A DNA stretch of 64,000 bases from assembly GCA_028820505.1 (NCBI GenBank), contig JAPPIT010000034.1:25565-89564 (forward strand), in the 5' to 3' direction. The stretch is from Defluviicoccus sp. (GTDB lineage Bacteria; Pseudomonadota; Alphaproteobacteria; MPNO01). The notes below the pieces were generated by a model that had not been told where the DNA came from, searched no databases, and saw only the letters and a list, made by a program, of their open reading frames with translations. Shown piece by piece: positions 3,106 to 38,884 of the stretch (within the stretch, counting starts at the first letter, position 1; every line of letters starts with the position of its first letter). Made by a program: the position numbers and the translations under genes.

Positions 3106-3271
3106 CGGCCGCGCTCCGGTGTTTCGGGCGACGCGATCCGCGGATCATCGGCGATCTGCCATCCTCCCCCGCCGCCGCACGCGACGCCCGTCGGCGCTCC
3201 TGCGGTCTCGTTGACCGAATACTAGCAGGCCGGCCGCTCCGTATGCCAACGACCGCCGGGGTGTCGTCGTC

Positions 3272-4450
3272 CTAACCGGGATCGTCGTCCCTGCAGACCC
3301 GATCCAGAACGTCGTTGATGACGTGGTGGATGCCGAGCTCCAGCTTCGACATCGGGCCCGGCCGGAGGCGGCGCGACTTCATGTTCTGCTGCAGCGACGC
3401 CACCATTTGCCGGTCCTCCTCGACGACCTCGATCAGGTATTCCCGGTAGACCTCGATCCTCTCCTCGAAGCCGGGAAGATCGAAATGCTCTTTGGGAAAG
3501 AGGGTGTAGTTGACGACGCCGCAGCGGTCGGGCCCGAGCGGCCACATCAGGAAGGGATGCACGTTATCGCATCGGGCGATCAGCTGCATGTTGGGTGAGA
3601 GACGGCCGGAACAGGCGAAGTTGTCGGGTTTGTCGTCGAGCCAGGGCATCTTTCCGAACAGACTCTCGCCGCGCGGCACCATCGGAGCGGAGTGGTAGAA
3701 CATGCTGGTTCCGCCGCGCTCGAACAGGTTGAACGGGTATCTGTCGGCTCGGCCGCGCTTCGCGCCGATGGTCTTCGCGTGCAGCGTGGCAGCGTGATAG
3801 ACGTCGAGCAGGTTCTCGACGAACAGCTTCCAGTTGCAGTCGAGCTCGACCTCGATTTTCACGGCGAGGCGGCAATCCTCCTGGCGCAGGAAGCCGAACT
3901 CCCGCTCGAAATGGGCGACGAAATCGGCCAGCGGCGGGGCGTCGTCATCGAAGGTGATAAACACCCAACCCGCCCACGTGCCGAGCCTGAGCGGCGGCAG
4001 ACCGCAGCGCGAGGGATCGAACTCCTCGGAGTCCTCCATGAACGCGGCGCCGGTGAGCGCGCCTTTCAGATCGTAGCTCCAGCCGTGATAGGGGCAACTG
4101 AAATGGCCGGTGTTGCCCTCGCCCCATATCACCTCGACCCCACGATGGGCACAGGTGTTGGAAAAGGCCCTGAGTTCTCCCTCGTCGTCGCGCACGATGA
4201 GGGCGGGTTCCCCCATGATACGGACCGCCATGTAATCGCCCGGGCTCTCCAGCTCCTCGACGCGGGCGACGCAGAGCCAGTCCTTCATGAAAATGTGCCG
4301 CTTCTCCAGTTCGTAGATCTCCGGCGAGCAGTAGAACGCGCCGGGCACGTGACGCGCTTCGACGATCGGGCGGCGGATATTCTCGAGGTTTTCGCCAGCC
4401 CACGCCGGTGCAGCGGAACCGGTTAACGGACCGTCCTCGCCGGGTACCAT
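3272..4450 (-). CDS. Rieske [2Fe-2S] non-heme-iron oxygenase alpha subunit (GbcA/CntA/Stc2-like group)
   Basis: Rieske motif CAHRG…(17)…CPYHGW; catalytic-domain motifs CNWKLFVENLLDVYH; start chosen at MVPGEDG (ATG 4450..4448) preceded by GGAGAGAG. The longer track ORF (to 4567) has no SD. Confidence 0.85.
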   Translation of the reverse strand: MVPGEDGPLTGSAAPAWAGENLENIRRPIVEARHVPGAFYCSPEIYELEKRHIFMKDWLCVARVEELESPGDYMAVRIMGEPALIVRDDEGELRAFSNTCAHRGVEVIWGEGNTGHFSCPYHGWSYDLKGALTGAAFMEDSEEFDPSRCGLPPLRLGTWAGWVFITFDDDAPPLADFVAHFEREFGFLRQEDCRLAVKIEVELDCNWKLFVENLLDVYHAATLHAKTIGAKRGRADRYPFNLFERGGTSMFYHSAPMVPRGESLFGKMPWLDDKPDNFACSGRLSPNMQLIARCDNVHPFLMWPLGPDRCGVVNYTLFPKEHFDLPGFEERIEVYREYLIEVVEEDRQMVASLQQNMKSRRLRPGPMSKLELGIHHVINDVLDRVCRDDDPG

Positions 4451-4787
4451 GGTCGGCTCTCTCCGATAGTTCGAAGGTTCGCAGGGACTGTAGTGAAACG
4501 GTTTTCGGTTCGCCACAGCCGCCATGGGGCAATGGACCGCCCCGGTCGACGTCCGCATCGCCTTCATCGAGCCAGGTTCGCCCCTGGAAAACGGATAGAT
4601 TGAGCGATTAAACCCCCATTGCCCGGCTTGGCCGCGACACCGTCAATAGATTAAAATTCCAACCGGGCCCGTCAGTCGGCGCAGGTCACGGTATTTCAGC
4701 ACGGTTTTCAGTCTGCCCGAGACGTTCTCCGTCCCCGGACGACGCGTCGGCCGTCGACACACTGGCCCGGCACCCAGGAGACACGAG

Positions 4788-6995
4788 ATGCTTCCGATCA
4801 CCGGCTATGCCGACCGCTATTCGGTAGCGCCCGGCGAATCCATCGCGTTCAAGGTGTCCTCTGCCGCGGCGGAGGACTACGAGGCGCGCCTGGTGTGCGT
4901 CATCAGCGGCGACCCCAACCCCGCCGGGCCCGGCATACGCGAGGAGCCCGTCGAGGCCGCCTTTGCCGGTCCCTATCCGTCGCGGGTGCAGCCGATCCAC
5001 AACGGCTCCTGGGCACGCGTTGCCGCCGCCGCGCCCCTCGATACGCTCAAGAGCTTCACGGTGACCGCCACCATCTGGCCTGCTTTGCCCCGTCTCTCCC
5101 GCCGGCAGGGTCTCGTGTCGCGTGTCGATGCCGTCACCGGAGCGGGCTTCACCCTTGAGATCGACGAGACCGGCGCGCTTGCCGCCACGTTGAGCGACGG
5201 CGCCCGGACGGTCGTCCTCGACACCGGCAGGGCGCTCCGCGCCCGCGCCTGGTACCGGGTTTTCCTCAGCTACGACGCGGGCGCGGGCGAGGTCCGTGTC
5301 GGACAGCTTCCGCTCGCGCCCGCGATGTTGGTCGATGATTCGGGCACCGCCGCCGCCCCCGCTTCATTCGGGGGGAGCTGCACCGGGAGCGGCGATCTGG
5401 TGTTCGCGGCGCGAGCGGGCTCGCCGCCCCGAGACCACTATAACGGCAAGCTCGAAGCGCCGCGGATCGTGGCGGCCGCTCTCGACCTGGACGCGGCATT
5501 CCGCGCCGCGGGGATAGACCGTGGCGAGAACGTTTTCGCCGCGTGGGACTTCTCGCGCGAGATGTCGTCCGTGCGCATCCTGGATACCGGCCCGCACGCG
5601 ATGCACGGCGAGACCGTCAACCTGCCGGCGCGCGCGATGAAAGGCTGGCGCTGGACGGGGGAAGAGATGTGCTGGCGCCACGCTCCCGAGCAATACGGCG
5701 CGATCCACTTTCACGACGACGACCTCTACGATTGCGGTTGGGGGACCGATTTCGTCTTCGAGGTGCCGGAGGACTTCAGGAGCGGCGTCTACGCGGTGCG
5801 CCTCAGCGCCAGCGGCGACGAGGACATGATTCCCTTCTTCGTGCGCGCCGCGCCGGGCCGGGCGCAATCGAGCGCCTGCGTGCTGATCCCCGTCTTTACC
5901 TACACCGTCTACGCCAACTTCGCCCGCGGCAATGTCGACGACGCCTACCGCCGGCAGGTCGCGGACTGGGGCGCCCGCCCGTGGACGCCGGACGAGCATC
6001 CCGAATACGGGATCTCGACCTATAACCGCCATAGCGACGGCAGCGGGGTCGCCTATTCTTCGCGACTTCGCCCGATTCTCAACCAGCGTTCCGGGTTTTG
6101 TGCCTACGCGGACCCGCTGGGCGGCTCCTGCCTCCGCCACTTCCCCGCCGACACCCATCTTCTCGCCTGGCTGGATGCGCTCGGCCACGATTTCGACGTC
6201 ATCACGGACGAGGATCTCGACGCGGACGGCGTCGACGCGATCGCGGATTACAAGGTGGTGATGACGGGCTCGCACCCGGAATACCACACGCCGGGCTCGC
6301 TCGACGCGCTCGCGGCGTACACCGAACAAGGCGGACGCCTGATGTATCTCGGCGGTAACGGCTTTTACTGGCGCGTCGCGGTCAACCCGGAACTGCCCGG
6401 CGCGGTCGAAATTCGCCGCGGCGAGACCGGAATCCGCGCCTGGGCGGCCGAGCCGGGGGAGTACTACAACGCCTTCGACGGCGGCTATGGCGGGCTGTGG
6501 CGAAACAGCGGCCGCGCGCCCCAGCGCCTCGTCGGGGTGGGATTCGTCGCTCAGGGCGACTTTCACGGCACCGCCTACCGGCGGCTCCCCGCGTCCCGCG
6601 ATCCCCGCGCCGCCTGGATCTTCGAGGGCATCGGCGACGACGAGCTCCTCGGCGACTTCGGCCTTAGCGGCGGCGGAGCGGCGGGCTTCGAACTCGACTG
6701 GCTGGACCCGAGCCTCGGATCGCCGGCCCATGCCCTCGTGCTGGCCCGCTCGGAGCGGCAGGACGACACCTTCATGCTGGTGCCGGAGGAGATGCTGAAC
6801 CACTACGTCAACCGTCCCGGTCTCCCGACCGAGGACCTCATCCGCTCCGAGATCGTGTTCTTCGAAACGCCCAACGGCGGCGCGGTGTTCTCGGTCGGAT
6901 CGATCACGTTTTGCGGGAGCCTCCCCCACAACGAGTTCGACAACAACATCTCGCGCATGCTCGACAATGTGTTGCAACGGTTCCGAAGGGACTGA
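4788..6995 (+). CDS. N,N-dimethylformamidase large (beta) subunit-like family protein
   Basis: 735-aa soluble protein; length and N-terminus (MLPITGYADRYSVAPGESIAFKVS) resemble the DmfA2-like family as I recall it; GGAG sits 7 nt upstream of the ATG. No small-subunit gene is seen. Family assignment is from memory, not from a search. Confidence 0.5.
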   Translation: MLPITGYADRYSVAPGESIAFKVSSAAAEDYEARLVCVISGDPNPAGPGIREEPVEAAFAGPYPSRVQPIHNGSWARVAAAAPLDTLKSFTVTATIWPALPRLSRRQGLVSRVDAVTGAGFTLEIDETGALAATLSDGARTVVLDTGRALRARAWYRVFLSYDAGAGEVRVGQLPLAPAMLVDDSGTAAAPASFGGSCTGSGDLVFAARAGSPPRDHYNGKLEAPRIVAAALDLDAAFRAAGIDRGENVFAAWDFSREMSSVRILDTGPHAMHGETVNLPARAMKGWRWTGEEMCWRHAPEQYGAIHFHDDDLYDCGWGTDFVFEVPEDFRSGVYAVRLSASGDEDMIPFFVRAAPGRAQSSACVLIPVFTYTVYANFARGNVDDAYRRQVADWGARPWTPDEHPEYGISTYNRHSDGSGVAYSSRLRPILNQRSGFCAYADPLGGSCLRHFPADTHLLAWLDALGHDFDVITDEDLDADGVDAIADYKVVMTGSHPEYHTPGSLDALAAYTEQGGRLMYLGGNGFYWRVAVNPELPGAVEIRRGETGIRAWAAEPGEYYNAFDGGYGGLWRNSGRAPQRLVGVGFVAQGDFHGTAYRRLPASRDPRAAWIFEGIGDDELLGDFGLSGGGAAGFELDWLDPSLGSPAHALVLARSERQDDTFMLVPEEMLNHYVNRPGLPTEDLIRSEIVFFETPNGGAVFSVGSITFCGSLPHNEFDNNISRMLDNVLQRFRRD

Positions 6996-7298: not shown

Positions 7299-9620
7299 TC
7301 ACACGCCGTCGCCCTTTGTTTCGCGCCCGATAAGCGCGTGCAGCATTCGCTCGGACGTCATCGGCAGGTCTCGGAGCCGGATGCCGGTGGCGTCGGCGAC
7401 CGCGTTGGCGATTGCAGGGGCCACGCCTACGATGCCGGGTTCACCGATGCCCTTGGCGCCGAACGGCCCGGAGGGTTCGGGGTCCTCCACGACGATCGGG
7501 TCGATGGGATAAGGCACATCGAATGCTGTGGGCACCTTGTAGTCCATCAGCGTGGGGTTGATCAGCGTGGCCTCGTCCCAGACCATCTCCTCGGTGAGCG
7601 CGTAGCCGATCCCCTGGGCGAAGGCACCCTGGATCTGGCCCTCGACCGCCAGCGGGTTGATCGCCCGGCCAACGTCATGCGCCGACCACGCCTGCACGAC
7701 CGAGATTTGGCCCGTCACCTCGTCAACCTCGACTTCGACCGCTTGGGCGCCGAACACGTAGGTGCCGAGGTTGGAGAACGGGAACCCCCGGATCAGTGCC
7801 CGTTTCGGATCGAACCGTTCGCCATCGTACATGAGGGAGAAGTGGCCCATGATCGGGCCACCCACCGCCCAGTGCGCGCGCTTTGAAATCGCGATGAAAG
7901 GCAGCTCCTTTTCCGGCACGCCGGCGATGCCCACGCGCCCGCCGGGCCGCAACTCCAGATCTTCGCGCGCGCACTCCATCATGTCGGCCGCGTGCTCGAA
8001 AATCTGCTCCTTGACACGCTCGGCGGCACCGGCGACCGCTCGGCCGGTCATATACGTGACACGGCTGCCAGACGTGCTCCAGTTGTAGGGGGACGCGTCG
8101 GTGTCCGGATTGACGTAGTTCACCCGGTCCACCGGAACGTCGAGAGCGGCCGCGCAAATCTGCGCCAGCGCGGTATCGGCGCCCTGGCCGCTATCGACGG
8201 CGCCGGTGGCAACGGTGACCGTGCCATCTTCAAGCAGCCGGACGGCCGCGCTGGTCGACAGGAAGCCGCAGACATGCGCGAGGCACGCAACGCCGAGGCC
8301 ACGACGCTTCCCGGGCACGGATGCAACCGGCCGCGGCCGCCGGCGGGCGGCGTCGCGCACGCGCTCGATGCATTCCGTCATCCCGCAGGCTTCGATTGTC
8401 TGCCCGCCCAACCACTTGTCGCCGACATGCATCGCGTTCCGGATGCGAATCTCGAACGGATCGATGCCGAGCCGCGCAGCAATCTCGTCCACTTGCGACT
8501 CGGTGGCGAAGGTGATCTGCGGATTGCCGAAACCGCGAAAGCCGCCGGCGCGGCTCTTATTCGTGTAGACGGCCCGCCCGAACACCCGAACATTGGGGAT
8601 GTTGTACGGACCGCGCGCCTTCAGAAGCGCGGCGCCGAGGACAGCCGGGCTCTCGCTGCAGTAAGCGCCCCCTTCGAGCAGGACTTCGGCTTCGCGGGCG
8701 ACCAGCGCCCCGTCGTTCATCGCTCCCGTCTTGATCCGGATCCGCGCGGGATGGCGCCGGATCATCATCATCATGTCCTCCGAGCGGGACAGAACGATTT
8801 TCACCGGACGGCCGGTGCGCCGCGCGAGCTCGACCGCGACAGGCTGGAGGTGGGCGCCGCCCTTGCCGCCGAATGTGCCGCCGATACGCGGCGCGATCGC
8901 GCGGATCTGCGACATCGGGATATCGAGCAACGCCGAGACCTCGGCCTGTACCCGGAACACCGACTGGGTCGTCGACCACACCGTTACCTTCCCGGCGGAG
9001 TCGAATTCGGCGATCGCACCCGTCGGCTCGATCGCCTGGTGATACTGGGAGTGCGTGGTGAACTCGCTTTCGAGCACGACGTCGCATTCGTCCCACGCGC
9101 TATCGACGTCGCCTTCCACCATTTCCTGGTAGGAAACGACATTCCCGCCATATTCGATAAGGCTGCTCTTCTCGTATGCGTCCAGGTCGTCGTGCAGCTG
9201 CGGCGCGCCGTCGGCCAGCGCCTCCTCGATGGTGAGGACGGCCGGAAGCTCTTCGTACCCGATCTTCATCGCCCGAACGGCCGCCTGCGCGGTAGCGAGG
9301 TCCTCCGCCGCGGCGACCGCCACCGGTTCGCCGACATACCGCACCTTTCCGCGCGCAAGACAGGGCATGTCGCTTATCGCGCCGCCGCCGAGCCGGGGGA
9401 AGTCGTCGCCGGTCAGCACCGCGTGCACGCCAGGCATCGCCGCGGCTTCCGTGGCGTCGCAGGAAACGATCCGCCCATGCGGTATCGTGCTCAGGAGATA
9501 CGCGGCATGCAGCATTCCCGGCCGCACGATGTCGTCGAGGTACTGCGCTCGCCCGGCAATCTTCTCCCGCGCCTCCCGCCGCGGCAAACGTTCGCCGAGC
9601 CCGTGGAGCCGCTCCCCCAT
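7299..9620 (-). CDS. xanthine dehydrogenase family molybdopterin-binding large subunit (CoxL-like, not form-I CODH)
   Basis: 773 aa; GGFRGFGNPQ motif typical of molybdenum hydroxylases; lacks the VAYRCSFR active-site loop of form-I CO dehydrogenase; follows the FAD and 2Fe-2S subunit genes. Confidence 0.85.
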   Translation of the reverse strand: MGERLHGLGERLPRREAREKIAGRAQYLDDIVRPGMLHAAYLLSTIPHGRIVSCDATEAAAMPGVHAVLTGDDFPRLGGGAISDMPCLARGKVRYVGEPVAVAAAEDLATAQAAVRAMKIGYEELPAVLTIEEALADGAPQLHDDLDAYEKSSLIEYGGNVVSYQEMVEGDVDSAWDECDVVLESEFTTHSQYHQAIEPTGAIAEFDSAGKVTVWSTTQSVFRVQAEVSALLDIPMSQIRAIAPRIGGTFGGKGGAHLQPVAVELARRTGRPVKIVLSRSEDMMMMIRRHPARIRIKTGAMNDGALVAREAEVLLEGGAYCSESPAVLGAALLKARGPYNIPNVRVFGRAVYTNKSRAGGFRGFGNPQITFATESQVDEIAARLGIDPFEIRIRNAMHVGDKWLGGQTIEACGMTECIERVRDAARRRPRPVASVPGKRRGLGVACLAHVCGFLSTSAAVRLLEDGTVTVATGAVDSGQGADTALAQICAAALDVPVDRVNYVNPDTDASPYNWSTSGSRVTYMTGRAVAGAAERVKEQIFEHAADMMECAREDLELRPGGRVGIAGVPEKELPFIAISKRAHWAVGGPIMGHFSLMYDGERFDPKRALIRGFPFSNLGTYVFGAQAVEVEVDEVTGQISVVQAWSAHDVGRAINPLAVEGQIQGAFAQGIGYALTEEMVWDEATLINPTLMDYKVPTAFDVPYPIDPIVVEDPEPSGPFGAKGIGEPGIVGVAPAIANAVADATGIRLRDLPMTSERMLHALIGRETKGDGV

Positions 9621-32996: not shown

Positions 32997-33327
32997 GTCT
33001 CGGGTTGCTTCTCCCTGCCTTGTCGGTCAATACATCGTATGCGTGTCGAGGAGGGAAGCAAAGCACGCCGGATGTCTCACGCCGCCGCGCACGGAGGGGG
33101 ACTTCCTCTTCGCAGCCGTACGCATGGCGATAGTGGGGGAAGGTCGAGTTTTCCCTCGGGACTGCATCATTCCGGTAGCGACCGCGTGGGTTCCGTCCCC
33201 CTGGCATCCGAACAGCCGCCTCGACGAACTCCTGCCCTGGAACTTCGACAGTTCGTCAATCTGACATACCGGGTGGGGCGCTCGTGGCGCTTTCCATGAG
33301 ACGCGGCAGCCGCGAGCTTGAACCCCG

Positions 33328-33382: not shown

Positions 33383-34282
33383 CTACTGCTGCCGCCTCGC
33401 GCCGAAGGCGGCGATCATGTTGGAATGCTCGAAGATGCCCGCCGCCTCGGCGTGGCCGGGACCGTGGAAGCCGCCCTGGATGCGTGCGCCCGACTGGCCT
33501 CTTGCGAAGGTCCCGTCCGGCCCGACCTCGAGGTCGGAGAAGATCACCGCCTCGACGCCATACGCCGTGCCGCGGTCGATGTTCTTGATGCCGCTGAGCC
33601 CGGCATCGAGTCCGCCGGCGCTCATGTCGTAGTTGAGCGCCGCCGTCCCGACCAGCCGGTCGCCGCGACCGTCCCCGGCGATGGGCGTTCCCACCATGAT
33701 GCCGAGCCAGGTGGCGGACCCGGTCAGCGGGCCATCGGTGAGATCTCCCAGGGCGAGCGCGTAGGAGTAAGCGGACTCTACCTCGCCCCCGATCGCTCGA
33801 TCGTTGAAGAGCCCAAAGGAGCCATGCTCCATCCAGGCGCCGAGCGAGGTCCGGTCCAGGCCCATATGCCGCCCGGTCTCCGCCAGGAGCGTGATGCCGT
33901 GCGCGGAGCCGATGGCCTCGGCATCGCCCCGCAAGACCGGGGAGGTGGCGAGATCCCTCGCGTCCGTCTCGCCGGTCACGGGGTCGAGTACTTCGCATCG
34001 CGGACCGGCGCACTCCGACAGCAACCGGAACCTGCGGGCGTCGTCCGGAAGCACGGCCTCCACGTGCATCGTGGAGAGGATCAGGGAATCGGCCCGCGCG
34101 GAATTCTCCTGCTGACGCGCCTGCTGCGCCTGTCCGGTCTCCATCGGCGCGGACAGGCCGGTCAGTTCCCTGATGTCGTCGAGCCCGAGGGCCGGCCGCG
34201 AGCCGGAACCGCCGTTCCCGCCGCAGGCCGCGAGGGAAAGGATGGCTGCCGTCGCCATGACGCAGGCAAGATGGACTCTCAT
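33383..34282 (-). CDS. surface/periplasmic lipoprotein with TbpB/fHbp-like C-terminal beta-barrel (lipoprotein_5-type)
   Basis: Signal peptide with lipobox (ILSLAAC); Gly-rich mature N-terminus; C-terminal motif …IQGGFHGPGHAEAAGIFEHSNMIAAFGARRQ matching the 'GxFYGp…E.gG.F…aFGakr' end of TbpB-like handle/barrel domains. Confidence 0.5.
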   Translation of the reverse strand: MRVHLACVMATAAILSLAACGGNGGSGSRPALGLDDIRELTGLSAPMETGQAQQARQQENSARADSLILSTMHVEAVLPDDARRFRLLSECAGPRCEVLDPVTGETDARDLATSPVLRGDAEAIGSAHGITLLAETGRHMGLDRTSLGAWMEHGSFGLFNDRAIGGEVESAYSYALALGDLTDGPLTGSATWLGIMVGTPIAGDGRGDRLVGTAALNYDMSAGGLDAGLSGIKNIDRGTAYGVEAVIFSDLEVGPDGTFARGQSGARIQGGFHGPGHAEAAGIFEHSNMIAAFGARRQQ

Positions 34283-34344
34283 GTCGGTGTCCTCCGGAAA
34301 GATCGATCGACAGGGCGGGCCGGCGCATCCACGGTCGAGGCCCT

Positions 34345-34503
34345 GCCGGTCGATTCGGCGACGAAGTGATGGCCGCGACGCTGATCGACCGGTTGGTCCA
34401 CCACTGCCACATCGTCAACATCCGGGGCAACTCATACCGCGTGCGGGAGCGACAGAACCTGCTGCAATCCGGCTCGGATCGGCGCCGCAAAAAGGCCGCG
34501 TAG
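34345..34503 (+). mobile_element. istB: IS21-family istB (transposition helper ATPase) 3'-terminal remnant
   Basis: Frame encodes …GRFGDEVMAATLIDRLVHHCHIVNIRGNSYRVRERQNLLQSGSDRRRKKAA*, matching the conserved IstB C-terminus (F.GD..M..A.LDRL.HH.H….G.SYR…). Nothing of istA or the rest of istB is present. It is followed at 34523-34538 by the palindrome GATAACC-G-GGTTATC and a related copy ACCCGGTTACC (34552-34562), possibly end-repeat relics. Confidence 0.55.
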
Positions 34504-34869
34504 CACTCGCCGGCCCGCTGTGGATAACCGGGTTATCTCGCCAGACTCGTCGCCGGTCGCTGCGCCAACCCGGTTACCCAAAGCTCCACCGAGACCAACA
34601 CCCCCACCACCGCGCCTGGAGGACGACCGCAACCTCAAAGTGAGAAATTCTCAGTCGGAATTGACAGCAAAAGAACTTTCTCACATGCAGAACTCCGATG
34701 CGCCTATCCCTAGTGAGACATCCGGGTTAAAGCCTGTCCGTTTGGGGTGGAGCCGCCGACGCGGCACCGCACGGGGATGCGCCTCAGGCAGACCGCCGGA
34801 CCCTCGAGACCGCGCTGCGCCCAAGTGCGGTCAACGCCGGTCGCGCCCTCGCAGTAGAGGGATCCCAGC

Positions 34870-35235
34870 GTCTCGCCTTCTCCAGATGCCCCATCACGAT
34901 ATAGCCGGTGCCATGGGCCTGAAAGAAGTGCTGCACCCGGACGATGCTGGGATGATCGAAACGCGCGAGCGTCCGGGCCTCGCCGAGAAAACGATCCAGC
35001 CCCCACAGATAATCCTTCTCGTCCTCTTCCGATCTGGGCAGGACGGTCCGGTCCGCTTCCCGTGCCGCCGTACCCGCCGGCATGTATTCCTCGATGGCGA
35101 CCACCTGCTGGAGCAGGGTGTTCCAGCCGCGATAGGTGATGCCGAACCGCCGTGACCGATCACCCCGTCGATCTCGAAATCCTCCAGCCGCGTGCCCGGC
35201 GGCAAGGCGTCCCTGTCGACCGATCGCTCGGTCAT
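34870..35235 (-). pseudogene. Hanks-type Ser/Thr protein kinase, N-terminal fragment with frameshift
   Basis: Reads MTERSVDRDALPPGTRLEDFEIDGVIGHGG (Gly-loop) then, after a -1 shift in a T-run near 35146 (ggttcggc vs expected ggtttcggc), …VAIEEYMPAG…FLGEARTLARFDHPSIVRVQHFF…GYIVM… (kinase subdomains II-V). Homology stops around 34880, so it is also 3'-truncated, about 370 nt from the IS21 remnant. Confidence 0.5.
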
Positions 35236-35298
35236 TTTCGCCCCGGATCGGGCAAAGGGTTCGAGTGTCTCACCGGGTCGGGTCCTGCCCCGTAGATC

Positions 35299-35688
35299 CT
35301 ATCCCGCCCGCTTCTTCGCCTCTGCGGTCAGCCTGTCCGCCCCGGTCGCCAGCTTCTTCGTCGCTGCCGTCAGCTTCCTCGCCTGTTCCGCACTCCTTCG
35401 CGCGTTTGCGGCCAGCCTTCGCAACTCCGCGATCCTGCGGTCGATCTTCTCCACCGCGCGGGCTTGCGGGCTCGATTCCCTCAGATTCTTGAGATGAGCC
35501 GCGGCTGTCTTCGTTTTCCTGTCCTTGAGGGCGGCCTCCGTCCATTGCTCGTATTTCCCGAACACCCGTCGCAACCCCCCGCGCGCGCGGACGTTCTCCG
35601 GTTCGAGGGCCTGCGCCTTCCGATAACAGTCGATCGCGGCCCGCGCGCCATCTTCGGTCAGGCTGTCCGGGGGAAACGGCTCTCGCAC
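35299..35688 (-). CDS. hypothetical TPR-like/coiled-coil protein (or out-of-frame C-terminal extension of the PP2C gene)
   Basis: C-terminal 129 codons of a longer GC-junk ORF look protein-like (…AIDCYRKAQALEPENVRARGGLRRVFGKYEQWTEAALKDRK…AELRRLAANARRSAEQARKLTAATKKLA…); only a GTG start overlapping the PP2C end by 30 nt is available. Confidence 0.25.
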   Translation of the reverse strand: MREPFPPDSLTEDGARAAIDCYRKAQALEPENVRARGGLRRVFGKYEQWTEAALKDRKTKTAAAHLKNLRESSPQARAVEKIDRRIAELRRLAANARRSAEQARKLTAATKKLATGADRLTAEAKKRAG

Positions 35689-36665
35689 TCCGCGACCTGC
35701 CTGTCGCCCGGGTTCGAGGGGGCCAGCCAGTCCGCGTCCAGCGTGCCGGCCGCGATGCCCGCCAGCAGGCCGACCATCAGCACGGCGGCGAAGCTCGCCA
35801 ACCGGCGGCCGGACCGCGCCGCCGCCTCGGGTTCGCCGGCGGCGCCCACCGGATCCGTGCGGTGAGCGGCCCGATCGCCCGCCGCGGAGTCGCCGGACAG
35901 CAACAGGAAGGTCACGTTGTCCTGGTTCGGCCCCGCCACGCGCTCGACCGTGGCGAGCAGCGCGCTGGCGGCGTTTTCCGCGCCGCCGCCCGCCCGGACG
36001 AGACAGGCTTCGATCTCTTCCTCCGAAAGGGTCTCCAGCCCGTCGCTCGCGATCAGCAGGTAGTCGCCGGGCCGCAGGCGGCAGGAACGCTCGGCGCGGT
36101 CGACGAGGCTCGCGGGCACGCCCGTCACCGCGGAACGCAGCATGTTGCGCCGGCGGTCGCCCAGCGCCTCCTCTCGGGTCATCTCGCCGTCGCGGACGAG
36201 GGATTCGAGGACCGGCATCATGGAATGGTCCTCGTTCAACCGCTCCAGCCGGCCGTCGGCGAACAGCCACATCGGCGAGTCCCCGACGCTCAGCCAGGAC
36301 AGGCGCCGCCCGTCATAGAGCGCGGCCACGACGGTGCTGCCCATCCCCGCGAGCCGCGGATCGTTCTGTTCCTGCTCCGCCAGGCTGGCCGTGGCCTGCG
36401 CCAGGCACTCGCGCAGACGCGTACCGATCGAGCCGGTCGAACTCTCGAATTGCCGGATGAATGTCCGGACCACGGTATCGCTGGCGATCGCTCCCCCGGC
36501 TTCGCCCCCCATACCGTCGGCGAGCACCATGAGCAGCGCGGGCGGATCCCCGGGTTCGACCGCCTCGACCTCCAGCGCCCCGGAATCGTCCTCCTGGTAG
36601 CGCCGCCCGCCTTGCCATTCCCGGTGCGCCAACGGCCACCCGGGTACCAGGGGAGCCTCCGTCAT
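35658..36665 (-). CDS. PP2C-family Ser/Thr protein phosphatase with C-terminal membrane anchor
   Basis: PP2C motifs (…YQEDDSG…VLADGMGGEAGG…SDGL…); C-terminal TM helix LASFAAVLMVGLLAGIAAG; start MTEAPLV at 36665. Confidence 0.8.
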   Translation of the reverse strand: MTEAPLVPGWPLAHREWQGGRRYQEDDSGALEVEAVEPGDPPALLMVLADGMGGEAGGAIASDTVVRTFIRQFESSTGSIGTRLRECLAQATASLAEQEQNDPRLAGMGSTVVAALYDGRRLSWLSVGDSPMWLFADGRLERLNEDHSMMPVLESLVRDGEMTREEALGDRRRNMLRSAVTGVPASLVDRAERSCRLRPGDYLLIASDGLETLSEEEIEACLVRAGGGAENAASALLATVERVAGPNQDNVTFLLLSGDSAAGDRAAHRTDPVGAAGEPEAAARSGRRLASFAAVLMVGLLAGIAAGTLDADWLAPSNPGDRQVAECESRFPRTA

Positions 36666-36698
36666 CGGTCGCGGCCGGCTCCTGCGTGTCAGATGAAT

Positions 36699-37828: not shown

Positions 37829-38842
37829 TCAGCGCCCTTTCACCAGCGGCATCACTTCGGCGGCGAAGGTCTCCAGCCCCTCCTTCATCGGGTAGAAGTG
37901 CACCATCGGGCAGTCGATGCCGATCGACTCGAAGTAGCGCAGGCGGTCGGCGACCTGGCGGGGCGTGCCGACGAGCCCCGCGCCGAGCCCCTTGGCGGCG
38001 ACCGCCGAGACCGGGTCGCGGCTGCCGTACTCTTCGAGCTCCCGGACCCGTTCCTCGGCCTCGCTCGCGCTCTCGGTACAGATGACGTGCGCGCTGATGC
38101 CGTAGGAGAGCGATCTGCCGTACGATTCCGCCCGCCGGTCGAGGTCCTCGATGTCGCGGGCCAGGCGGGCGATGTTGGCCTCTGCGTTGGCGTAGCCCGG
38201 ATCGTAGGCCACGAACCACACGTCGCAGGCGCGCGCCGCTACCTCCTTGCCCGCCTCGGACCGGCTGGCGGCATAGATCGGCGGGTTGGGAAGCTGGACC
38301 GGCCTGATGGGCAACCGACCCGATCGGCAGCGGTAGAATTCGCCGTCGAGGGTGAATGTCTCCTCGGTCCACAACCCCTTCATCACGTCGACGAACTCCC
38401 CCATGCGGCGATAACGATCGTCGGACCGGTCGAGCCAGCCGCCATTGCCGAAGACGTCGAACTCCTCCTCGTACCAGCCGTTGACCACGTTGACCGCGAA
38501 GCGCCCGCCGCTGATCCGGTCGAGCGAGGCCCCCATTTTGGCGGCGAGCTGGGGTGAGACGATGCCGGGGTGCACGGCACACATGAGCTCGATCCGGCTG
38601 GTGTGGGCGATGAGGGCGGCGGTCAATATCCACGCCTCCAGATCGGGGCCGAGATGGCGTTCGGCGATCAGCGTGGTCTCGAATCCCAGCGCCTCGGCGC
38701 GCCGGACGATGTCGACCGCGATCCGGAACGACCTGTCGGCGTCGCCGCCGGCGCCCGGCGTCCGGAGGTCGGAGACGGCATCCGCCATGGCGTCGTCGCT
38801 GCGCACCGTGTGCGGCAGCGGGGTCCAGATTCCGTATCGCAT
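37829..38842 (-). CDS. LLM-class (luciferase-like) flavin-dependent monooxygenase/oxidoreductase
   Basis: 337 aa, MRYGIWTP… N-terminus and TIM-barrel LLM sequence pattern. Confidence 0.85.
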   Translation of the reverse strand: MRYGIWTPLPHTVRSDDAMADAVSDLRTPGAGGDADRSFRIAVDIVRRAEALGFETTLIAERHLGPDLEAWILTAALIAHTSRIELMCAVHPGIVSPQLAAKMGASLDRISGGRFAVNVVNGWYEEEFDVFGNGGWLDRSDDRYRRMGEFVDVMKGLWTEETFTLDGEFYRCRSGRLPIRPVQLPNPPIYAASRSEAGKEVAARACDVWFVAYDPGYANAEANIARLARDIEDLDRRAESYGRSLSYGISAHVICTESASEAEERVRELEEYGSRDPVSAVAAKGLGAGLVGTPRQVADRLRYFESIGIDCPMVHFYPMKEGLETFAAEVMPLVKGR

Positions 38843-38884
38843 CCCTCGGCGTTCCTCGCTGTCGTTTCCGTTCCCGCGCCCCCC

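Follow-up and report, generated by a model that had tools for sequence, protein, structure and literature searches.

A Ser/Thr kinase gene that ends abruptly lies, in a 64-kb stretch of DNA from Defluviicoccus sp. (the window), close to the end of an IS21-family insertion sequence and to a PP2C phosphatase gene. Did the element break the kinase? The original prediction was that an IS had inserted into the kinase gene and had then lost most of its length by deletion, leaving an orphaned but intact phosphatase next door. The components of this account are present, namely a real IS21 relic without istA and a dead kinase fragment; the insertion that was to connect them is not borne out. We consider it most probable that a Ser/Thr signalling operon has decayed here and that a dead stub of an IS21-family element borders what is left of it on the downstream side. 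Both real and old, this architecture is shared by five assemblies (the window, L001, L002, L098 and L099), and the same junctions recur in the other four at 93-99.8% identity. The IS side of the locus is composed as follows.

33383-34282, minus strand: lipoprotein gene, TbpB/Slam-like, 299 aa (ORF; left neighbour of the IS relic)
34283-34354: 72-nt spacer from the lipoprotein ATG to the IS truncation point (same junction in L001 and L002)
34355-34666, plus strand: right end of an IS21-family element, a 312-bp relic (about 15% of 2.1 kb)
about 34355-34503, plus strand: istB 3' end, 49 codons and a TAG stop (PF01695 and NF038214 matches)
34517-34584, plus strand: conserved hairpin inside the IS (inverted repeat; RNAalifold)
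34640-34666, plus strand: right inverted repeat, of which one terminal unit is present, GTGAGAAATTCTCAGTCGGAATTGACA (alignment; CA-3' end)
34667-34838: 172-nt spacer from the IS end to the kinase remnant (no similarity to IS loci, the window itself, plasmids or Rfam)

The frame from 34354 to 34503 on the plus strand, FGDEVMAATLIDRLVHHCHIVNIRGNSYR..., is the C-terminus of an IS21-family IstB, as predicted. It matches Pfam IstB_IS21 at positions 203-236 of 238 (E 7e-12) and NCBIfam IS21_help_AAA at positions 200-232 of 232 (E 1.5e-11). The tail is all that the window holds of IstB, its C-terminal 34-38 residues reaching the last profile positions, and it shares 84% amino-acid identity with the IstB of L004. 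A complete relative is 2141 bp long and encodes IstA (HTH and DDE/rve) followed by IstB (AAA+ helper) between TG...CA ends; L004 is complete, with HTH and rve in its IstA. With a complete relative as the query, tblastn and blastn detected neither istA, the absence of which had been predicted, nor any further istB in the whole 64 kb. Because IstA is absent from the window, yet present in complete relatives such as L004, the IS21 feature is a relic and not an element.

To delimit the relic, we used blastn and alignments. The match starts at 34355 in nearly all of the 80 IS loci; over 34355-34666, L003 and L050 are 89% identical and multi-copy elements 75-80%. The right terminus, ...TTGACA at 34666, is exactly the point at which copies from one genome part ways in the alignment, directly past ...TTGACA or ...TCGACA. 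The complete relatives start with TGT and finish with ACA. Several full copies carry two direct repeat units of ~24 nt at both ends, and 5-bp target duplications are seen in L004, L010 and L012 (TCCTT, CACGA and CCATC). IS21 is organised with L1/L2 and R1/R2 repeats, a 3' CA and 5-bp duplications, and its integration requires two complete repeats at each end (PMC10122671). Complete relatives of the relic thus agree with the IS21 family (IS21, IS5376) in end organisation, 3' CA and 5-bp duplications, whereas the window keeps only the last 312 bp, with the istB tail, the internal hairpin and a single terminal repeat. No left end remains, and hence no target duplication pair. With no transposase, a single end and just one of the two terminal repeats needed for IS21 integration, the stub cannot move.

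Two palindromic motifs had been read as relics of the terminal inverted repeats. Both are found in place, GATAACCGGGTTATC at 34523-34537 and AACCCGGTTACC at 34567-34578, as arms of the IS-internal hairpin and not of the terminus, which is the unit at 34640-34666. RNAalifold on eight IS copies predicts 26 pairs, four of them with compensatory double changes (for example, AACCGGGTT/AACCCGGTT versus AACTGGCTT/AAGCCAGTT). The IS subgroup was found only in MAGs of uncultured bacteria; the best plasmid matches have ~77% nucleotide identity, in the coding part only.

The signalling genes were compared with three related loci (L085, L097 and the more distant L096), where the operon order is (VWA)-FHA-MotA/ExbB-FHA-PP2C-kinA-kinB and the PP2C has a membrane helix and a tail. 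L097 has ~82% nucleotide identity in PP2C (blastn), and its kinB is 80% identical in amino acids to the reconstructed kinB of L085. PP2C stands directly upstream of the kinase gene or genes in all three, which supports the proposed partnership of phosphatase and kinase. The window retains the following kinase features.

35235-34839, minus strand: kinase N-lobe remnant, PpkA-like Hanks type (profile, tblastn)
35133-35298, minus strand: kinA-derived kinase start (codons 1 to ~35, from 35235) with the kinA upstream spacer (identity to L085)
34839-35132, minus strand: kinB-derived kinase part, codons ~36-130, VAIK changed to VAIE (identity to L085)
35145-35146, minus strand: site of a 1-nt deletion (AA in the window, AAA in L001, L002 and L099)
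34879-34881, minus strand: site of a 2-nt insertion, a frameshift (also in L001; not in L002, L085 or L097)

The 5' part of a Hanks-type kinase had been recognised on this strand from its motifs, and these are readable between 35235 and 34880 (GHGG/FG, VAIEEY, HPSIVRV and YIVM; Pkinase profile positions 2-82 of 263). Among solved structures, the N-terminal domain of PpkA comes closest to this N-lobe (5hnv, E 2e-25). Similarity to family kinases in tblastn stops at residue ~125-130, and the C-lobe motifs HRDxKxxN, DFG and APE were found neither past residue ~130 nor elsewhere in the 64 kb. The beta3 catalytic lysine is replaced (VAIE here versus VAIK in the relatives' kinA and kinB), and the Gly loop GHGGFG is interrupted by the 1-nt deletion. 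The remnant cannot be catalytic.

Identity to L085 divides the piece in two. Positions 35133-35298 are 95-98% identical to kinA versus 45-78% to kinB; positions 34839-35132 are 89-95% identical to kinB versus 61-75% to kinA. The switch at ~35133 is seen against both L085 and L097, and the crossover is located in the GHGGFGITYRGWN-coding stretch common to kinA and kinB. By these identities, the kinase piece is a recombinant of the two tandem paralogues. A paralogue, K1 in L083, is fused to an FGE-sulfatase, with bAvd after it. We considered a diversity-generating retroelement (DGR) target and rejected it, as the window has no FGE-sulfatase or DGR trace and the true orthologues, kinA and kinB, lack such a domain.

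Smaller lesions differ between strains. The predicted single-base deletion in the T-run is confined to the window and L098, an independent 2.16-Mb contig that aligns with 0 gaps over 3199 nt. Because it recurs in an independent assembly, the deletion is probably real. L002, which lacks the 2-nt insertion and where the frame runs on as EHLEGETLGALY, has its own +1 near 35161. Separate lesions across strains are as expected for a pseudogene, and substitutions in the severed PP2C tail and the kinase remnant (3 synonymous to 9 non-synonymous, p = 0.63) fit neutrality. The window does come from a MAG and the 1-nt deletion lies within a short homopolymer, as one would expect if the kinase were intact in the organism and its frameshifts and truncation were sequencing or assembly artefacts. 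The chance of this is negligible: truncation, IS junctions and PP2C frameshift are shared by five independent assemblies, the deletion occurs again in L098, and no C-lobe lies anywhere in the 64 kb. Sequencing error, which had been offered as an alternative, is also irrelevant to the outcome, for with the base restored (L001, L099) the ORF is still just 150 aa.

Between the kinase remnant and the IS end at 34666, which do not touch, lie the 172 nt of the spacer, with neither kinase nor IS21 similarity. Positions 34667-34838 have no match in the 80 IS loci (blastn), the window itself, plasmids or Rfam, and they do not resemble the remainder of kinB in L085 and L097. Against a PSSM of the kinase family they score 30.9, where dinucleotide shuffles reach 30.7 +/- 4.4; the opposite strand gives a higher score. 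Two observations had suggested a degraded kinase C-lobe: 34810-34826 agrees at 16/17 nt with the DFGAAR codons of two paralogues, and a collinear reading, GLPEAHPRAVPRRRLHP, resembles GLxEVHxxGxLHRDxKP. This was rejected, as both the PSSM and Smith-Waterman alignment to the rest of L085 kinB are at shuffle level. The spacer also contains an 8-mer, TTTCTCAC, inverted relative to the IS terminal repeat. A spacer derived from the left end of another IS copy is not supported, there being no blastn match in the 80 IS loci. The concatenated six-frame translation had no match, in a search that was saturated at 8000 word-sharing candidates and is uninformative. Over 34200-35400, there was no Rfam match (E up to 1) and scans gave no promoter or terminator signal.

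These results bear on the idea that IS21 inserted directly at the kinase end point and that the IS deletion then took the kinase 3' part. The right end of the IS is turned towards the 3' side of the kinase, where the truncation lies, the two relics are within 175 nt, and the IS21 family is active at the locus: in L098, a second, complete element, a fresh copy 600 bp away, interrupts the lipoprotein gene at 34068-34074. Such an insertion predicts that 34667-34838 is kinB codons 131-187 with the highly conserved HRDxKxxN loop, but the stretch scores as shuffled DNA does and lacks DNA similarity to L085 kinB, to which the window is elsewhere 89-95% identical. We regard the idea as highly improbable, and since 172 nt of non-matching DNA part the kinase from the IS end, insertion at the kinase break-off point itself is ruled out. 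What damaged the kinase was independent of the IS: unequal recombination of kinA and kinB, truncation at ~codon 130, the K-to-E change and lineage-specific frameshifts.

Is the phosphatase intact, as had been stated? Three features describe its state.

35658-36662, minus strand: PP2C catalytic domain and one membrane helix, 335-aa ORF (PP2C_2 and Stp1-type models)
35299-35690, minus strand: severed PP2C C-terminal tail, out of frame, with a TPR-like motif and Lys/Ala-rich repeats (L085/L097 alignment)
36678-36682: breakpoint ~20 nt before the PP2C start codon, ATG (blastn and alignments with L085 and L097)

The ORF has a complete PPM catalytic domain (PP2C_2, PF13672, 40.3 bits against a cut-off of 24) with readable RYQEDD, DGMGG, ASDG and DNVT motifs. 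It matches the Stp1-type model at positions 7-231 of 232 (E 1e-39), yet falls under that model's equivalog cut-off, and is 94% identical to L085 PP2C in amino acids and 95% in nucleotides. Just past the membrane helix, a 1-nt deletion between 35669 and 35670 (CCCCGCGG to CCCCCGG, common to the window, L001 and L002) stops the ORF three codons on. The tail that it cuts off is continuous with the catalytic part in the PP2C proteins of L085, of 598 aa, and L097, of 577 aa, with 86% amino-acid identity. In the window, the tail is shortened as well as out of frame, with a tandem repeat of a 21/42-nt unit at 35310-35383, and the full-length architecture (catalytic domain, membrane helix, TPR-like and Lys/Ala-rich tail, 577-598 aa) is not kept. 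Beyond 36678-36682, similarity to the FHA-MotA/ExbB-FHA-PP2C operon ends, and the FHA and MotA/ExbB partners are missing. The phosphatase is thus not an intact orphan; it is itself truncated and its operon partners are gone. We favour loss here rather than gain in the relatives, a direction that would follow from the three relatives.

The severed tail has a dN/dS of ~1-1.9. For the catalytic ORF, dN/dS since the frameshift is ~0.4, equal to that between intact orthologues, with a weak synonymous excess (9/19, p = 0.04). The truncated ORF may still be expressed, and these ratios suggest that it may not be a dead gene. That it is no pseudogene at all, and that selection has kept it as an orphan membrane phosphatase rewired to the substrates of other kinases, is a doubtful possibility. 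A scan of JGI metagenomes with PP2C returned only relatives of <=44% identity, none informative on the junctions.

On the other side of the relic, the lipoprotein has weak matches to TbpB_B_D and slam_lipo and is identical to MDE0173160.1 at NCBI (Defluviicoccus sp. MAG). Window/L001 and L002 differ as a block over ~34600-34712, from ~65 nt before the end of the IS relic to ~45 nt into the flank, and a simple model of shared ancestry does not explain this. The spacer, and perhaps the lipoprotein side, might have arrived by recombination between IS copies, the relic being the joint of a rearrangement and not a kinase-adjacent insertion. Consistent with such an origin, terminal module and flank differ as one block, and in another MAG, L017 and L018 have IS bodies that are 100% identical yet end in the same two alternative modules. 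Moreover, an IS66 tail relic at 33208-33258 and the IS21 tail bracket the lipoprotein gene, and in L096 a related lipoprotein gene is convergent to the kinase, unlike in the window. Recombination of whole elements leaves a whole IS, and an additional deletion is still required; we consider this origin unlikely.

We return to decay of the operon by successive lesions, in six steps. Comparison with the relatives shows the steps; their order and the mechanism of the deletions we infer. First, all that lay upstream of PP2C was lost, with the break ~20 nt before its ATG. Second, the 1-nt deletion past the membrane helix severed the PP2C tail. Third, unequal homologous recombination in the identical GHGGFGITYRGWN-coding stretch joined kinA codons 1-~35 to kinB, removing ~1.25 kb. 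Fourth, the fused kinase was cut at ~codon 130 and joined to the 172-nt DNA, which may derive from downstream of kinB. Fifth, an IS21-family element had already landed with its right end at 34666, and a later illegitimate deletion took the left 85% of it (left end, istA and most of istB) together with adjoining DNA, halting 72 nt upstream of the lipoprotein gene. Sixth, neutral lesions that differ by strain followed: the K-to-E change of the catalytic lysine, the 2-nt insertion in some strains, and the 1-nt deletion in the window strain and L098.

The ancestral operon resembles known signalling modules. Like the PpkA/PppA/Fha threonine-phosphorylation module of type VI secretion, the relatives pair a kinase with PP2C and FHA proteins. 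In contrast to that module, the related loci showed no type VI secretion genes and have MotA/ExbB-like and VWA proteins as partners, with two tandem kinases, and the window retains only fragments. In Mycobacterium, the operon order is fhaA-fhaB-pstP-rodA-pbpA-pknA-pknB. By analogy, the ancestral operon would likewise combine a pair of FHA proteins, a PP2C that is anchored in the membrane and bears an extracytoplasmic tail, and two Hanks kinases in tandem; it appears to lack RodA and PbpA and to have a MotA/ExbB-like gene instead.

The locus is a case of ordinary reductive decay by several separate mutations, not by one insertion: what looks like a simple hit of an IS on a gene is a stack of at least six separate lesions. 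It is fittingly annotated as an IS21-family remnant with kinase and PP2C pseudogene fragments, and not as an orphan phosphatase system. Past annotation, its significance is little. For an IS21 subgroup frequent in MAGs of uncultured bacteria, the analysis delimits the ends, the terminal repeats and a hairpin conserved inside the element. It also provides, from an uncultured Defluviicoccus population, a small and well-documented case of an eroding operon, with IS21 and IS66 activity at a single variable site.

On the minus strand of the window, positions 35235–34880 encode a kinase N-lobe in two frames. With the frame repaired, this remnant matches positions 2–82 of the 263-position Pkinase profile. 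Among solved structures, the PpkA N-terminal domain comes closest to it (5hnv, E 2e-25). Full-length kinase relatives were found in 1.8 billion representative proteins. Two contigs from close relatives, L085 and L097, are decisive for the remnant; they and the more distant L096 carry the ancestral operon, where Hanks-type kinase genes (the tandem paralogues kinA and kinB in the first two) follow a PP2C phosphatase gene.

Gene order of the presumed ancestral operon in relatives
L085: MotA/ExbB, FHA, PP2C (598 aa; 95% nucleotide identity to the window), kinA (357 aa), kinB
L097: FHA, MotA/ExbB, FHA, PP2C (577 aa), kinA (349 aa), kinB (513 aa)
L096, more distant: VWA, FHA, MotA/ExbB, FHA, PP2C, kinase

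A related metagenome contig (L083:1–2870) encodes a paralogue of the kinase with an FGE-sulfatase (C-type lectin-like) domain fused to it. A bAvd gene comes next, so that the two are arranged like a diversity-generating-retroelement target, and the neighbours are a PP2C, an ankyrin protein and another kinase.

Window positions 35300–35133 (upstream spacer and codons 1 to ~35) are 95–98% identical to L085 kinA versus 45–78% to kinB; positions 35132–34840 are 89–95% identical to kinB versus 61–75% to kinA. Comparison with L097 reveals this switch too. It falls within a stretch coding GHGGFGITYRGWN, nearly identical between the paralogues, and the remnant is therefore a kinA::kinB recombinant, best explained by unequal homologous recombination deleting ~1.25 kb. 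The catalytic lysine is lost (GTCGCCATCGAG, VAIE, versus ...ATCAAG, VAIK). Similarity to kinB ends at ~34839, near codon 130.

The T-run deletion noted originally, 1 nt at 35145–35146, is absent from L001, L002 and L099 but recurs in L098, which is 2.16 Mb long and was assembled separately. A sequencing error is therefore unlikely, and the deletion is probably a real strain polymorphism. An extra T would not restore a full-length kinase either, since in relatives that have the base the ORF is just 150 aa, and the deletion does not matter for function. The repaired fragment is 99% identical to P0001, a 150-aa protein on L001. A 2-nt insertion near 34879–34881 is common to the window and L001 and absent from L002, which has its own +1 near 35161. 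Such strain-specific, independent lesions are what a pseudogene should show.

The phosphatase gene, originally called intact, is also damaged. The PP2C protein of L085 and L097 runs on past its membrane helix (...AECESRFPADSLTEDGARAAIDCYRK...) into a TPR-like and Lys/Ala-rich tail. One nucleotide is missing after the helix in the window, L001 and L002 alike (CCCCGCGG to CCCCCGG, between 35669 and 35670), and the ORF ends three codons later. The out-of-frame tail persists at 35299–35690; a 21/42-nt tandem repeat in its Lys/Ala-rich part (35310–35383) has a different copy number in the window than in L001/L002, and L085 has a much longer tail. About 20 nt before the ATG of PP2C the similarity to the ancestral operon stops, and a divergent proline-racemase-like gene stands in place of FHA and MotA/ExbB. 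The tail and kinase remnant look neutrally evolving, with 3 synonymous to 9 non-synonymous changes relative to L002 (p = 0.63). For the catalytic part of PP2C, dN/dS is ~0.4, equal to that between intact orthologues, with a weak synonymous excess (9/19, p = 0.04), suggesting that the truncated phosphatase could remain in use; neighbouring housekeeping genes have dN/dS of 0.06–0.08.

To the left of the kinase lies the IS relic. The plus-strand frame at 34354–34503 (FGDEVMAATLIDRLVHHCHIVNIRGNSYRVRERQNLLQSGSDRRRKKAA, then a stop) matches the last residues of IstB, as originally proposed, with hits to Pfam IstB_IS21 (E 7e-12; positions 203–236 of 238) and NCBIfam IS21_help_AAA (positions 200–232 of 232). 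The reported absence of istA was borne out: searched by tblastn and blastn with a complete relative, the whole 64 kb gave no further match to istA or istB. A scan of species-representative genomes for the IstB tail yielded 80 loci, mostly in MAGs of uncultured Alphaproteobacteria, Defluviicoccus, Vicinamibacterales and Candidatus Multivorans. By blastn, homology to related elements spans 34355 to 34658–34668, with up to 89% identity (L003 and L050). Within one genome, the copies agree exactly as far as ...TTGACA or ...TCGACA and pass at once into unrelated sequence (alignment A2); the window counterpart of this terminus, ...GGAATTGACA, ends at 34666. The complete relative (L004:2213–4353, 2141 bp) encodes an IstA-like ORF (HTH and rve) and IstB (PF01695, 271 bits), and its ends start with TGT and carry two ~24-nt direct repeats each. 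This is the organisation described for IS21, in which two complete repeats per end are required for integration (PMC10122671). Three related copies have 5-bp target duplications. The window retains one terminal repeat unit (34640–34666), as do L050, L017 and L014. L003 and L050 are istB-tail-plus-right-end relics of the same subgroup in other genomes, cut at different points, so left-side truncation seems recurrent. The element is a new, unnamed IS21-family member, surviving as a relic.

The palindromes taken for terminal inverted-repeat relics are an element-internal hairpin. GATAACCGGGTTATC and ACCCGGTTACC form the arms of an 18-nt inverted repeat (34517–34534 and 34567–34584) kept in all IS copies, ~15 nt past the istB stop and ~80 nt inside the terminus. 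Across diverged IS21-family copies, RNAalifold gives 26 pairs at 34517–34584, four with compensatory double changes. With no T-tract, it is not a classical terminator.

Did the element insert into the kinase gene? Between remnant and IS end lie 172 nt (34838–34667). With a PSSM built on 123 kinase family members, this spacer scored 30.9 as degraded kinase versus 30.7 ± 4.4 for shuffles and 455 for the N-lobe control. Aligned locally, as DNA, with what remains of L085 kinB, it did no better than shuffles, and blastn and tblastn found no match in L097 kinB and six other orthologues. Nor does it match any IS locus, anything else in the window, a plasmid or an Rfam family. As all tests for degraded kinase were null, no recognisable kinase sequence adjoins the IS end, and the proposed insertion at the kinase truncation point is, on these comparisons, excluded.

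The architecture is shared. L001 matches the window in gene order and is 99.3% identical to it over 10.5 kb, and the same junctions occur in L002 (93–98% identity), L099 (98.8%) and L098 (99.8%). These junctions are the point where the kinase is cut and the point where the IS is cut, the latter at 34354/34355 and 72 nt away from the lipoprotein ATG. The window, from a Defluviicoccus sp. MAG, has a lipoprotein and an LLM oxidoreductase identical to MDE0173160.1 and MDE0173165.1 at NCBI. Positions ~38814–38880 are a strain-variable joint: L001 has an integrase/NikA-like island past the equivalent of 38814, and in L002 ~6 kb with an ABC transporter and an aldo-keto reductase separates the counterparts of 38858 and 38880.

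At ~34600–34712, L002 differs from the window as a block, which does not fit simple descent; its relic carries the other terminal module, "type 2" (CTGTCGGATTTTCGATTGCCATTGACA), and its flank is shorter and different. In one MAG (CBDBCA), L017 and L018 have 100% identical IS bodies and two different terminal repeat modules, switching just past CCCCAGCACC; the same switch separates the window relic (~34600–34666) from that of L002. This suggests modular exchange of IS21 ends; since both modules occur on identical bodies within one MAG, such exchange between copies seems common. The joint at the relic may have been reshaped through recombination with another IS copy.

The neighbouring lipoprotein gene (33383–34282, minus strand) is bracketed by two IS 3'-tail relics of the same orientation, since the frame at 33208–33258 (+) holds the C-terminal end of an IS66-family transposase (PNSRLDELLPWNFDSSS; tblastn E 5e-5 versus the IS66 gene at the end of L097). 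The lipoprotein gene is only 85% identical between the window and L002, with flanks at 97–98% and a dN/dS of 0.62; the surface lipoprotein either evolves fast or came in by recombination. In L098, a complete 2.8-kb IS21-family element (3200–5995) interrupts it at the equivalent of 34068–34074. This element encodes a 486-aa IstA (NF033546, 215 bits) and a 279-aa IstB (NF038214, 281 bits), shows what looks like a 7-bp duplication, CCACGAT, and is not of the relic's subgroup. Its presence in a 99.8%-identical strain indicates that IS21-type elements are currently active at the locus.

Comparison with relatives shows the lesions, for which we infer an order and mechanisms. The upstream operon would have been lost first, followed by the PP2C frameshift, the kinA × kinB deletion and a cut of the fused kinase at ~codon 130. 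An IS21-family element would then have arrived left of the remnant, and an illegitimate deletion would have taken its left 85% and adjoining DNA, stopping 72 nt from the lipoprotein gene. All six steps predate the split of the five assemblies; the 2-nt insertion and then the 1-nt kinase deletion followed. The observations in the original prediction largely stand, and its interpretation does so only in part. The locus is one of ordinary reductive decay with mobile-element scars and pseudogene fragments of an already known kind of signalling operon.
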